NCBI GenBank assembly: GCA_044229655.1
Contig: JBGASM010000009.1
Location: 31,708-95,707 of the forward strand
From: Phycisphaerales bacterium
Lineage (GTDB): Bacteria > Planctomycetota > Phycisphaerae > Phycisphaerales > UBA5793
Direction of reading: 5' to 3'
Length of the DNA: 64,000 bases
Shown: in pieces, positions 1 through 3,770 of the stretch
How positions within the stretch are numbered: position 1 is the stretch's first letter
Layout: the number at the start of each line of letters is the position of its first letter
Program-made: the position numbers and the translations under genes
The notes under the pieces: model-generated
The model's input: only the letters and a program-made list of their open reading frames with translations
Told to the model about the DNA's origin: nothing
Database searches by the model: none

Positions 1-369
1 GATGGCGGTCTGGAGGGCCTTCTTGACCGCGACGGCGGCGCGCTTTTTGGAGAACGCGAGAAGATTGAGGGCGGTGTTGACGTCCTTGCCACGGATGAGG
101 TCGGTGACGAGCTTGACCTTGGTGGGGGACATGCGTGCCCACTTGTACGAGCCATCGTACTTGACGATGTCCTGCGGCGCGACGCCCAGCGCGGAGGCAA
201 GGCGGCGGAGGTCATCGGGCTTGGGGCGCGGACGGAAGTCCCCGCGACGCCAGTTGCGTACGGCGGAAGTGGCGTTAAGGCCGGGCCGGTCGATCGCAGC
301 GGCAACCTGCTCTTCGGAGAGGCCGGCGCGACGGATCGCATCAGTGAGTTTCTTGTGGTTGATGATCAT
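1..369 (-). CDS. rplV: 50S ribosomal protein L22 with N-terminal XRE/Cro-type HTH domain (3' end outside window)
   Basis: Manual translation from ATG at 369 is open to position 1: MIINHKKLTDAIRRAGLSEEQVAAAIDRPGLNATSAVRNWRRGDFRPRPKPDDLRRLASALGVAPQDIVK-YDGSYKWARMSPTKVKLVTDLIRGKDVNTALNLLAFSKKRAAVAVKKALQTAI. The second half is the L22 N-terminus, in the canonical position after rpsS. Confidence 0.93.
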   Translation of the reverse strand, partial: MIINHKKLTDAIRRAGLSEEQVAAAIDRPGLNATSAVRNWRRGDFRPRPKPDDLRRLASALGVAPQDIVKYDGSYKWARMSPTKVKLVTDLIRGKDVNTALNLLAFSKKRAAVAVKKALQTAI

Positions 370-406
370 GACTGACCTGTGTTCCTGGAACTGGGGCGAC
401 CGGGGA

Positions 407-706
407 TCATTCCTCAGCGGGCTTCTCTCCGCCCTCAATGCCTTCCTTGCGGTTGGTGTGCCCGCGGAAGGTGCGGGTATGAGAAAACTCGCCGAGCTTG
501 TGACCGACCATGTCTTCGGTTACGAAGACATCGAGGAAGGCGCGACCGTTGTGCACCTTGAAGGTGTGGCCGACGAACTCGGGAACGATGGTGCAGCGGC
601 GCGACCAGGTCTTGATCGGCTCGCGGCGGTTGGCCTCGTTGAGCCGTGAAACCTTGCGGTACAGGCTTTCCTCGACGAAGGGACCTTTTTTCAGTGATCT
701 TGCCAT
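407..706 (-). CDS. rpsS: 30S ribosomal protein S19
   Basis: [11 protein letters not shown]...[23 protein letters not shown]...[15 protein letters not shown]; start trimmed to ATG 706. Confidence 0.98.
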
Positions 707-754
707 AACTGTGTCTTTCTCGACCGGCGTGAGATCCGCGGAATGCACCAACTA

Positions 755-1609
755 TCAGAGCGTCAACTGGCCGTAGCGCACGCTGCGCCGGCGACGGATA
801 ATGCGTTTGTTGGAAAGCGACTTGGGCTTGCGCGTCGGACCGCCCTTGGCGAGCGTGCCGGTGGGGCCAGCCGGCGGACGATTGCCCTTGGACTTGCCTT
901 CACCACCACCCATGGGGTGGTTGTCGTGGCTCTTGGCCATACCGCGCGTCTTGGGGCGACGGCCGAGGTGTCGATTACGGCCGGCCTTGCCAAGCCGAAC
1001 GTGCTGATGATCTTCATTGCCGACTTCGCCGATGGTGGCACGGCATTCGACGGAGACCTGGCGGATTTCACCGGAGGGGAGCACCAGAGTGGCCCATTTG
1101 TCCTCGCGATTCGAGAGCCGAGCGTACATGCCGGCCGACCGGCACATTTGACCGCCGCGACCTGCGGCCAGTTCGATGTTGTGGACCGCCAAGCCGGTGG
1201 GAATGAACTTGAGGGGCATGCAGTTGCCGACCTTGGGGTCGATGCGCTGCGAACTGGACATGACGGAATCGCCGTCCGTGAGTCCCTTGGGAGCGATGAT
1301 GTAGCGGCGGGTGCCGTCGGCGTATTCAACGAGGGCGATGTTGGACGAGCGGTTGGGATCGTATTCGATGCCAACGACCTTGGCGGCGGCATCGTCGGTC
1401 CGGCGCTTGAAGTCGATCATGCGGTACTGGCGCTTGGCGCCTCCGCCACGACCGCGCACGGTAATGACGCCGTGACAGTTCCGGCCGCTGATGCGCCGCT
1501 TGGGAAGCAAGAGGCTCTTCTCAGGTTCGTGCTTGGTGATTTCTTCCTTGGTGAGCACCGAGGCAAAGCGCCGACCGGCAGAAGTTTTCTTGTAGATGCG
1601 AATGCCCAT
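755..1609 (-). CDS. rplB: 50S ribosomal protein L2
   Basis: [39 protein letters not shown] motifs; start trimmed to MGIRIYKK. Confidence 0.98.
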
Positions 1610-1674
1610 CGCTGCGTTCCTCTTTCGATACACGCTGGCGGGCCTTGCAGCGGCGCCAGCGGCTCATGGTCTCA

Positions 1675-1950
1675 TCAGATAATTTCAATCCGGTCGTCCG
1701 GATGGAGTTTCACGATCGCCTTCTTGGTCACTTTGCCTGGGATCACGCCGATGCGTGTGCGTTTCTCTGCAGCCTGACGAACAAGCGTGGCGACAGAGAG
1801 GACACGGACTTTGTAGAGTTCCTGAAGGGCGGCGCGGATCTGCGGCTTGGTGGCACGCGGATCGACCTCAAATGCGTAGCGGTTGTTCTCGCTGCCCTGA
1901 GTACTTTTTTCGCTGATGAGCGGACGGCGGATGACGGTTGTCGCTTCCAT
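1675..1950 (-). CDS. rplW: 50S ribosomal protein L23
   Basis: IRRPLISEKS, YAFEVDPRATKPQIR, KKAIVKL; operon position. Confidence 0.97.
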   Translation of the reverse strand: MEATTVIRRPLISEKSTQGSENNRYAFEVDPRATKPQIRAALQELYKVRVLSVATLVRQAAEKRTRIGVIPGKVTKKAIVKLHPDDRIEII

Positions 1951-1953
1951 GGA

Positions 1954-2616
1954 TTAGGCGCCTTCCTTTCCGGCCGCATTCTTGGTGTAGTGCTTACACG
2001 CGATGAACGCCTCCAGGCTGGCCTTCTCGATGAGGAGGTAGCGGTGGTTGAGCAGTTCAAAGACATTGAGCTGATCCCAGCGAATAGTGGAGACGTTGGG
2101 AAGGTTGCGGGCAGAGTATTGCGCATTCACATTGGCCGCGTCGAGTGCAACGAGGCAGGTGCGGTCCACGCCGACGGCCTTCAGAATCGCAGCGAATTCG
2201 CCGGTGCCGGGGGCGGAGAAATTCAGGCGATCAACGATCTTGATCTCCTGATCCACGGCCTTGGCGAGCAGGGCGTTGCGGTTAGCCAGTTGACGCATGC
2301 GCCTGGGCATGTCCTGACGGAACTCATCGTGCGTCTTGACCTTGGCGAACGCCACACCACCGCCGCGCATGATGTTGGTGCGGATGGTGCCGCGCCGCGC
2401 GTTGCCGGTGTGCTTCTGCTTGTAGAGCTTGCGGGTGGAGCCTTCGACGCGACTGCGGTTCCGAGTCCGGGCCGACCCTTGGCGCTCGTTCGCGTGTCTG
2501 CGGACGTAGGCCTGCTTGAGGAGGGCCAGACGCACTTCGCCGCCGAGGGATTCCTCGTCCAGCTGAAACACGTCGATCTTCTTGCCCTCGCGGTTATAAA
2601 CCGGAAGTTCAATCAT
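1954..2616 (-). CDS. rplD: 50S ribosomal protein L4
   Basis: RQGSARTRNRSRVEGSTRKLYKQKHTGNARRG...RGGGVAF. Confidence 0.98.
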   Translation of the reverse strand: MIELPVYNREGKKIDVFQLDEESLGGEVRLALLKQAYVRRHANERQGSARTRNRSRVEGSTRKLYKQKHTGNARRGTIRTNIMRGGGVAFAKVKTHDEFRQDMPRRMRQLANRNALLAKAVDQEIKIVDRLNFSAPGTGEFAAILKAVGVDRTCLVALDAANVNAQYSARNLPNVSTIRWDQLNVFELLNHRYLLIEKASLEAFIACKHYTKNAAGKEGA

Positions 2617-2950
2617 GATTCACGCACCTTGCAAAACGGCTCCTTGGGTTCAAGGAGCCGGGTTGTTTTCTCGCCTCGCCCTCCGGAACCGCACACAGCG
2701 TGTGTTCTCGGCAGGGGTTGACTCGGTGTCAGTCGCGTTCTTGTCGCCGTCAGGCAGTTCCCATTGCGTTCAGATGGAACTCTCCGGGCTTTCCTGACCG
2801 GGCGGGAACAAATCCCGTCCCGTGCGTTTCCAGATCACTAGCTCCAATTCTGGAATCACCTGACCACTTGACGACCGCCTGACCGCCAGGCAGTCACATA
2901 ACTTTGCCTACTCAGACTCTCGCCTGAATCCCCTGAGAAACCACCCCCCA
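2617..2950 (-). ncRNA. Candidate structured cis-regulatory RNA in the 334-nt rplC-rplD spacer
   Basis: No convincing ORF; at least six inverted-repeat stems visible (see findings). Confidence 0.35.
2633..2660 (-). terminator. Terminator/attenuator-like hairpin just upstream of rplD
   Basis: Perfect 10-bp stem CGGCTCCTTG (2637-2646) / CAAGGAGCCG (2651-2660) with 4-nt loop, followed on the minus strand by UUUU; 16 nt before the rplD ATG. Confidence 0.5.
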
Positions 2951-3634
2951 TCACTTTGCTGCGGCGGCCTTGTTGGCCTTCTTCTTGCCAAGCCGAATCG
3001 CCGAGCGGATATAGATTAGGCCGGTGGCAGGGCCGGGAACAGCACCCTTGAGGTAGATGAGGTTCTTTTCGGGCAAAACTTTAACTACATCAAGGTTGCG
3101 CATGGTGACGCGTTCGGCACCCATATGGCCGGGCATCTTCTTGCCCTTGCGCGGCTTGGGGCCACGACCGCGCTCAGTGCCGCCGCCGCCGATGGAGCCC
3201 GGGGAGCGGTGCTTACGCTCGGTTCCATGGCTGGCGAACATTCCCTTGAAGTTATGACGAACCATTACGCCCTGGAAACCCTTGCCTTTGGAGGTTCCGA
3301 TGACGTCAACGTATTTCACATCCTCGAAGTCTTTGACGGTGATCGCCTGCCCGACGGAGTACTCGCCGATCTTGTCGTCATCGACGCGCAGCTCGCGATG
3401 AGCGTACTTCGGAGTCAGACCAGCCTTGGCGTCATGACCGATGAGCGGCTGGGTGGAGTTGCGCGGCGAAACGTCTTCAAAGGCGATCTGGATGGCGCCG
3501 TAGCCATCAGAGTCCTTGGTCTTGATTTGCGATATCTGGCACGGGCCGGCCTGAATGACGGTGACTGGCATGTTGACGCCCTCGGCGTTGAACATGCGCG
3601 TCATGCCGACCTTGCGTCCAATGATGGCTTTCAT
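2951..3634 (-). CDS. rplC: 50S ribosomal protein L3
   Basis: GRKVGMT, DVIGTSKGKGFQG, HRSPGSIG, KKMPGHMG, KGAVPG; start trimmed to MKAIIG. Confidence 0.98.
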   Translation of the reverse strand: MKAIIGRKVGMTRMFNAEGVNMPVTVIQAGPCQISQIKTKDSDGYGAIQIAFEDVSPRNSTQPLIGHDAKAGLTPKYAHRELRVDDDKIGEYSVGQAITVKDFEDVKYVDVIGTSKGKGFQGVMVRHNFKGMFASHGTERKHRSPGSIGGGGTERGRGPKPRKGKKMPGHMGAERVTMRNLDVVKVLPEKNLIYLKGAVPGPATGLIYIRSAIRLGKKKANKAAAAK

Positions 3635-3770
3635 GGCGATTGTGTCTCCGGGCCGGAGGTGCCGCACTCATGCGGTACGCGGCCGATGCTGAAAATTCGA
3701 AACTGACGACTCCGTCAACGACAGCGGCCCATCCACCAAAGGACGAGCCGCGACAGAAACAGGGGAAGAA

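Follow-up and report, generated by a model that had tools for sequence, protein, structure and literature searches.

The only rplV gene in the genome of this Phycisphaerales bacterium encodes a ribosomal protein uL22 with an added N-terminal domain of 72 residues, predicted to have the Cro/C1 (XRE)-type helix-turn-helix (HTH) fold, and we find it very likely that the extended protein is made as one chain from the ATG at position 369 of the window, by which we mean the whole 64,000-nucleotide stretch of DNA analysed here. We favor the reading, with a probability of roughly 0.55, that this domain serves the 50S subunit as a lineage-specific architectural module close to the exit tunnel, where it would likely touch rRNA.

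The gene belongs to an S10 operon on the minus strand (positions 1-3667) that reads L3, L4, L23, L2, S19 and L22, followed by S3 and L16 outside the window. rplV lies between rpsS and rpsC and is the sole L22 match in the genome, which is 96.7% complete. A single frame on the minus strand runs without a stop from the ATG at 369-367 to the window start, a distance of 123 codons, and extends past it into the adjoining genome sequence, giving a full protein of 177 aa (P0001, at positions 1339-1869 of locus L001). The stop codon of rpsS at 407-409 leaves a 37-nt spacer before the rplV ATG. Codons 1 and 80 are the only ATG, GTG or TTG codons in the extended frame, and codon 80 is the Met of an ARMSP motif within the first strand of the L22 core. 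The earlier note had read the same frame and motifs with AGGA and AGGT upstream, and had regarded the internal Met as an implausible start since it falls within the L22 core; its coordinates and motifs proved correct on re-reading, and the scan of in-frame starts confirms its view of codon 80. The features of the locus are the following.

Positions 367-369, minus strand: ATG start codon of the extended rplV, the sole canonical in-frame start before codon 80.
Positions 375-386, minus strand: Shine-Dalgarno-like purine stretches AGGT (375-378) and AGGA (383-386), read in the rpsS-rplV spacer.
Positions 154-369, minus strand: N-terminal Cro/C1 (XRE)-type HTH domain by prediction, residues 1-72 (HTH_3, AlphaFold2 model, Foldseek, dN/dS).
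Positions 169-330, minus strand: Pfam HTH_3 match, residues 14-67, with the putative recognition helix and the invariant N39-W40.
Positions 1-153, minus strand: start of the uL22 core, 51 residues (73-123) (Pfam Ribosomal_L22, TIGR01044, Foldseek).
G000:C36:31546-31707: remainder of the uL22 core, beyond the window start.
Positions 407-706, minus strand: rpsS (S19), which adjoins rplV upstream in the S10 operon (ORF list and sequence).

The core is identified as uL22 by its profile scores, by its position in the S10 operon as sole copy, and by a predicted fold that matches solved uL22, including the long beta-hairpin. Pfam Ribosomal_L22 (PF00237) covers residues 76-174 [E = 1.6e-32, 112.2 bits against a cut-off of 28], and the NCBIfam model TIGR01044 (rplV_bact) reaches 118 bits against a cut-off of 73.65. 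In a Foldseek search, the full-length model matched solved bacterial uL22 chains with E = 3e-11, TMt 0.85-0.93 and an rmsd of 1-2.5 A. The NCBIfam family NF008917 (L22/unknown domain fusion protein) aligned with the L22 part only and scored 65.5 bits, far below its cut-off of 526. Two further observations concern the cores of relatives. In the Sedimentisphaerales-type clade (clade B below, loci L007-L031), the L22 cores have an insertion of about 3 residues in the tunnel hairpin, DDAGIRLGTKRW as compared with GSGPTLKRF here, in the region that forms the tunnel constriction. One public contig of 1097 bp holds a 247-aa ORF (P0106) with two tandem L22 cores in frame, either a real duplication or an assembly artefact.

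The HTH domain is joined to the uL22 core without a linker. The Pfam model HTH_3 matched residues 14-67 with 22.9 bits in the whole protein and 25.4 bits in the isolated domain, its cut-off being 23, while HTH_31 gave 18-21 bits against a cut-off of 27 and HTH_26 was below its cut-off too; the profile scan proposed in the earlier note for HTH and Ribosomal_L22 returned both parts, HTH_3 as a borderline match and Ribosomal_L22 as a strong one. When 23 relatives were scanned singly at E <= 0.01, HTH_31 was detected in 8, HTH_26 in 7, HTH_3 in 6 and HTH_19 in 5. The AlphaFold2 (AF2) model of the full-length protein, built with 119 aligned relatives, has a pLDDT of 92.1 and a pTM of 0.83, with pLDDT above 90 through the junction of domain and core and a sole dip at the tip of the tunnel hairpin. 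Modeled in isolation, the domain has a pLDDT of 90.9 and helices at residues 5-15, 19-23, 33-41 and 51-61, with residues 2-3 in a short bridge with residues 69-70. Foldseek aligned this isolated domain with the XRE regulators C.AhdI, DdrO, C.Csp231I, C.BclI, P22 c2 and 434 repressor and with the HTH of EDF1, at TM scores of 0.62-0.77 and a probability of about 1, with E-values of just 0.04-0.3. These results indicate that the predicted fold of the domain is XRE-like and that its membership by sequence is borderline, and they uphold the initial proposal that an XRE-type HTH is fused in frame to L22. Other identities were considered and set aside: the NCBIfam carph-isopro domain (NF046037) gave 21.5-23.9 bits against a cut-off of 38 and was rejected, as were the NsdA and RstR/DicA identities (NCBIfam), all with scores far under their cut-offs. 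Searches of PDB sequences with the domain and its profile gave weak matches, the best to a TniQ HTH (E = 0.0017) and others to designed repeat proteins, and we did not take these as homology.

Among the 119 sequences, W40 and P47 are invariant, and leucine 22 (L22), G30, A33, A36, N39, G43, D53 and A58 are kept in at least 90%. At the start of the third helix, positions 34 and 35 vary across the family, and N39 and W40 in the same helix are fixed. Positions 34 and 35 presumably match the base-reading positions of the 434 and P22 repressors, and N39 occupies what we take to be the place of the base-contacting Gln of the 434 repressor. Basic overall, the domain carries a net charge of +5 at the median of 119 sequences (-4 to +9), and K or R is conserved at positions 2, 7, 9, 28, 38, 48 and 50. 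Its most variable part is the loop between helices 2 and 3. In the N-domains of family f5 (L051-L053), 7-8 extra residues are present in this loop in two of the three genomes inspected.

The extension is conserved among relatives. In a search of 5.8 billion clustered proteins, 118 of the best 120 matches listed are 177-195 aa long, most of them with alignments that cover 87% or more of the query; the remaining two are a 146-aa and a 247-aa form, and a precomputed HTH Pfam match is present on 18 of these 120. All 30 loci fetched from the class search consist of a single ORF in which the domain leads straight into the L22 core, and in a second set of 52 loci the fusion was found in all 19 carriers and all 33 non-carriers begin at the core. 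For 28 pattern-matched loci (within L001-L031) the start codon lies 38-41 codons ahead of the invariant NW motif, and the 3 loci outside the pattern also carry the fusion. Of 26 loci from relatives, 23 have an in-frame stop within the 13 codons preceding that start, so the reading frame is bounded where the conserved domain begins, and AGGT/AAGGT-like motifs precede the start in many relatives.

To compare selection on the two parts of the gene, we calculated dN/dS (Nei-Gojobori) for 13 pairs and kept the 7 in which dS stays under about 1.1 in domain and core alike, more diverged pairs being saturated. The ratio was 0.04-0.24 for the domain and 0-0.09 for the core. Purifying selection acts on the domain, less strongly than on the core, and the comparison that had been suggested for the HTH thus came out in favor of a maintained domain. 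Contigs of three metatranscriptomic libraries, from three studies, span the junction of domain and core, and contigs of three such libraries span the start codon together with the end of rpsS, in each case with at most 3 mismatches and no indels; these contigs display the intact frame in independent samples and, being assembled, are no proof of transcription or translation. Some public versions of the gene are shorter (P0271, P0267, P0255 and P0023, cut to 113, 176, 160 and 146 aa, respectively). Gene callers sometimes miss the true start of the extended rplV.

The domain is confined to one class. In a survey of the phylum, L22 was detected in 298 of 301 genomes, and matches that reach the N-terminus occurred in genomes of the same class only. 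With the domain alone as query (residues 1-72), 84 of 401 Phycisphaerae genomes were matched, with one match each. The domain was recovered in 3/3 genomes of family f1, 18/19 of f3, 4/4 of f5, 27/28 of f6, 4/5 of f7, 20/20 of f115, 6/6 of f116 and 1/60 of f101, and this query had no match in the other 16 families of the class. The f3 genome missed by the search (G421) carries the domain on inspection. The sole f101 carrier (G594:C360:284-490) has its match close to one end of a short contig, and its bin is 88% complete and split into 620 contigs; this match is probably binning contamination. By the names in public records, one group of carriers, clade B, is Sedimentisphaerales, including Anaerohalosphaera lusitana, Limihaloglobus sulfuriphilus and Sedimentisphaera salicampi, and the other, clade A, is found among 'Phycisphaerales bacterium' MAGs. 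The earlier note had proposed a survey of rplV across Planctomycetota for conservation of the fusion: the fusion is indeed conserved and unbroken in its carriers, but it is restricted to two clades of one class and is not general to the phylum.

The non-carriers open directly at the core, with the pattern M-x(5-7)-H-R-[FY]-A-R-I-S in all 33 loci inspected, among which are those of f2, f4 and f100, families belonging to the window's order. Just ahead of the core stands a conserved aromatic residue, F or Y71 here and W in the other clade. It lines up with a W that many non-carriers have at the native N-terminus, which indicates that the HTH was attached exactly at the original start of L22. Outside of L22, relatives of the domain are few. 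A profile search of 1.84 billion representative proteins gave 129 domain matches at E <= 0.001, in which the strong single-stretch matches are L22 N-termini, fragments or frameshifted ORFs (a recognizable L22 core was found by HMM scan in 18 of the 127 matches scanned, P0122-P0248), the multi-stretch matches are tandem arrays of generic XRE domains, and the weakest are free-standing HTH proteins of 70-84 aa that resemble the RstR and DicA repressors below cut-off. No free-standing family of the domain was found in this search, and from the makeup of these matches the HTH subfamily exists essentially only as a part of L22. The sole lead from the ESM Atlas was an L22 cluster of 182 aa (score 0.75).

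To place the carriers within the class, we aligned 8 of the operon's ribosomal proteins (1111 columns) from 52 genomes and 4 outgroups and built a tree with FastTree and with IQ-TREE under LG+G4 in 'quick' mode. The carriers form two separate groups on this tree. Clade A consists of f1 and f3 and is nested in an order together with f100, f2 and f4, with IQ-TREE support of 100 for the order, 92 for f100+f1+f3 and only 25 for f1+f3. Clade B comprises f5, f115, f116, f7 and f6 (support 100) and adjoins f105, f111 and f101. Constraining all carriers to a single clade on the ribosomal-protein tree costs 389 log-likelihood units (AU test, P = 1e-40), and on the IQ-TREE topology the trait needs 2 changes, as compared with 7 losses if there was a single gain at the common ancestor. 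In the tree of the L22 core, the cores of clade A group with the rest of their order (support 85). This core is short, and taken by itself it is compatible with a single carrier clade in the AU test (P = 0.29), which leaves room for transfer of the whole gene. The tree of the N-domain parts clade A from clade B and is unrooted, so it gives no direction of transfer. The history could be one gain followed by transfer of the domain or of the 5' part of the gene, it could be two fusions of related HTH genes, or it could be an old gain with many losses.

If the extended protein is made as one chain, the HTH domain would enter the 50S subunit together with uL22. The AF2 model packs the domain onto the globular part of L22, and because of this packing and the missing linker it would hold a fixed place on the subunit, predicted to lie on the solvent side beside the rim of the exit tunnel and adjoining the first L22 strand. 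The junction sits immediately before the residues that match H7, R8 and R11 of Escherichia coli uL22, which are described at the interface of uL22 with 23S rRNA in a preprint (bioRxiv 10.1101/2022.04.20.488877). The same text describes the globular part of uL22 as exposed on the subunit surface and contributing to the site of peptide deformylase (PDF), and uL22 is counted as one of four proteins of the tunnel exit site in another report (PMC5071890). A cro/C1 HTH on rRNA has a precedent in EDF1/Mbf1, whose domain sits, by the account in PMC7486125, between helices h33 and h16 of 18S rRNA. The domain may bind the rRNA backbone, and perhaps a neighboring protein too, and may aid the assembly or the stability of the exit-tunnel region; its basic surface is compatible with contacts to the rRNA backbone. 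The analysis shows the fusion, its conservation, the purifying selection, the fold and the basic charge; that the domain is present in mature ribosomes, touches rRNA and has a structural role is our inference.

We looked for traces of such a role in the rest of the ribosome. None of the 50 Foldseek matches listed to solved ribosomal chains covers the domain, their alignments spanning about 108-110 columns. In 23S rRNA, comparing 6 carriers with 3 non-carriers, no block of insertion or deletion tracks the domain, and an rRNA partner that co-evolved with it is thus not obvious. Between the 6 carriers and the 3 non-carriers, five substitutions and one 1-nt indel (alignment columns 73, 194, 220, 477, 1056 and 1012) are fixed, in a sample that is small and confounded by relatedness. 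A rough length comparison of L23, L2, S19, S3, L16 and L29 revealed no clear carrier-specific extension among exit-site proteins. As for other lineage differences, the C-terminal tail of S3 (rpsC, L046-L097) extends a median of about 44 residues past the alignment in clade B and about 12 elsewhere; the 23S rRNA of G284 (L038) has about 285 extra nucleotides at columns 1916-2202 that are absent from the other 8; and the 23S rRNAs of the window's order, 2734-2832 nt long, fall short of the 2925 positions of the model. Since the f2, f4 and f100 relatives lack the domain, it is not essential for the function of L22.

The best-surviving alternative, which we consider unlikely all the same, is that the domain sits on the ribosome mainly as a protein docking platform at the rim of the exit tunnel, where it recruits, replaces or excludes a nascent-chain factor such as peptide deformylase. 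The location agrees with this, given a surface-exposed uL22 that forms part of the PDF binding site in E. coli (so described in bioRxiv 10.1101/2022.04.20.488877) and its membership of the four-protein exit site (PMC5071890), as do the rigid join to L22 in the AF2 model and the lack of an rRNA indel correlated with the domain, but a strongly basic domain is more typical of nucleic-acid binding.

More doubtful is the idea that the HTH, having passed as a domain from one Phycisphaerae lineage to a distant other, is now a built-in nucleic-acid-binding module of the 50S subunit at the tunnel rim. On the ribosome or as part of free uL22, it would bind either a factor or a specific nucleic acid, whether DNA, a small RNA or the leader of an mRNA. 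If this were true, translation at the tunnel exit would be linked to regulation or to the nucleoid, and bacteria would have a 50S counterpart of MBF1/EDF1. Somewhat less probable again is a moonlighting role such as the earlier note had suggested, in which the HTH retains binding to DNA (or mRNA) and free uL22 regulates, for example, ribosomal protein operons, or tethers ribosomes to DNA. The fold is that of the DNA-binding XRE repressors, the weak free-standing matches look like RstR/DicA-type phage repressors, N39 is invariant and the domain surface is basic. However, the start of the putative recognition helix varies at positions 34 and 35, with L22 embedded in the subunit the domain has no flexible linker on which to reach DNA, and sister families with the same operon do without the domain; nothing in this analysis supports the proposal of autoregulation or moonlighting through DNA binding.

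It is very unlikely that the domain is a passenger, a tolerated, nearly neutral and functionless extension that became fixed after a small HTH gene was fused to rplV. Related families do thrive without it, and ribosomal proteins commonly carry extensions, often without a known function (PMC9534751), but a dN/dS of 0.04-0.24 across a long divergence, several residues invariant in 119 sequences, and retention throughout seven families bar a few genomes under the search threshold (G421, which has the domain, among these) all argue for maintenance by selection. A start downstream, with the upstream frame open by chance, is hardly credible, for although some public annotations are shorter (113, 146, 160 and 176 aa), codon 80 is the next canonical start after codon 1, initiation there would delete the first strand of L22, and the extension shows conservation, purifying selection and a confidently predicted fold.

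Whole folded domains are rarely gained by core ribosomal proteins, and here a fold typical of DNA-binding proteins is found on a protein of the exit-tunnel wall that forms part of the site where nascent-chain enzymes dock. Selection has maintained the fusion in two clades, one of which has cultured species. If the domain is on the ribosome, it would be a bacterial case of an XRE-type HTH as a ribosome component. The distribution over two clades would be a case of domain-level transfer, or of repeated loss, in an essential gene. In practice, certain annotation pipelines truncate the extended rplV.

We found no description of an HTH-L22 fusion in the full texts searched, although the extension may be listed in the supplementary tables of the survey in PMC9534751. 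Prior annotation, which the earlier note had left open, does exist, but public records name these proteins only as plain '50S ribosomal protein L22' or uL22, some of them as truncated entries. Compared with bacterial uL22 (rplV), the protein has the same core (residues 73-177), the same place in the operon and the same fold, and differs in the addition of a folded N-terminal domain of 72 residues. With the Cro/C1 regulators C.AhdI, DdrO, C.Csp231I, P22 c2 and 434 repressor it shares the arrangement of helices, and the pattern S-x-x-N-W-x-x-G-x-x-x-P followed by L-A-x-A-L-G-V is like that of HTH_3 and HTH_31. It differs from them in being fused to a ribosomal protein, whereas theirs is free or joined to a sensor domain, in Pfam scores near or below the cut-offs, and in a longer and variable loop between helices 2 and 3.

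MBF1/EDF1 of archaea and eukaryotes likewise has a cro/C1-type HTH, which in EDF1 contacts rRNA on the ribosome, and the same report gives MBF1 as absent from bacteria (PMC7486125). The EDF1 HTH is among the Foldseek matches of the domain (TMq 0.65). As a factor of its own, MBF1 binds transiently to the 40S/30S subunit close to where the mRNA enters, whereas the HTH described here is covalently part of a 50S protein; Pfam and NCBIfam gave no match to the MBF1 N-domain or zinc ribbon in this protein, in which the HTH opens the chain and L22 comes next. Many bacterial ribosomal proteins, among them L22, are reported to carry extensions, and these have been surveyed (PMC9534751). Chloroplast uL22c, the L22 of Mycoplasma pneumoniae and the NF008917 proteins are all enlarged forms of uL22 in particular lineages, as is the protein described here, but their additions appear to be mostly tails or C-terminal in the accounts of the two sources (PMC5071890, PMC9534751), in contrast to the N-terminal domain of predicted XRE fold in our case. 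The fusion is thus a lineage-specific ribosomal protein extension that is unusual in consisting of a whole folded domain of the XRE type, on a protein of the exit tunnel, and in occurring in two clades.
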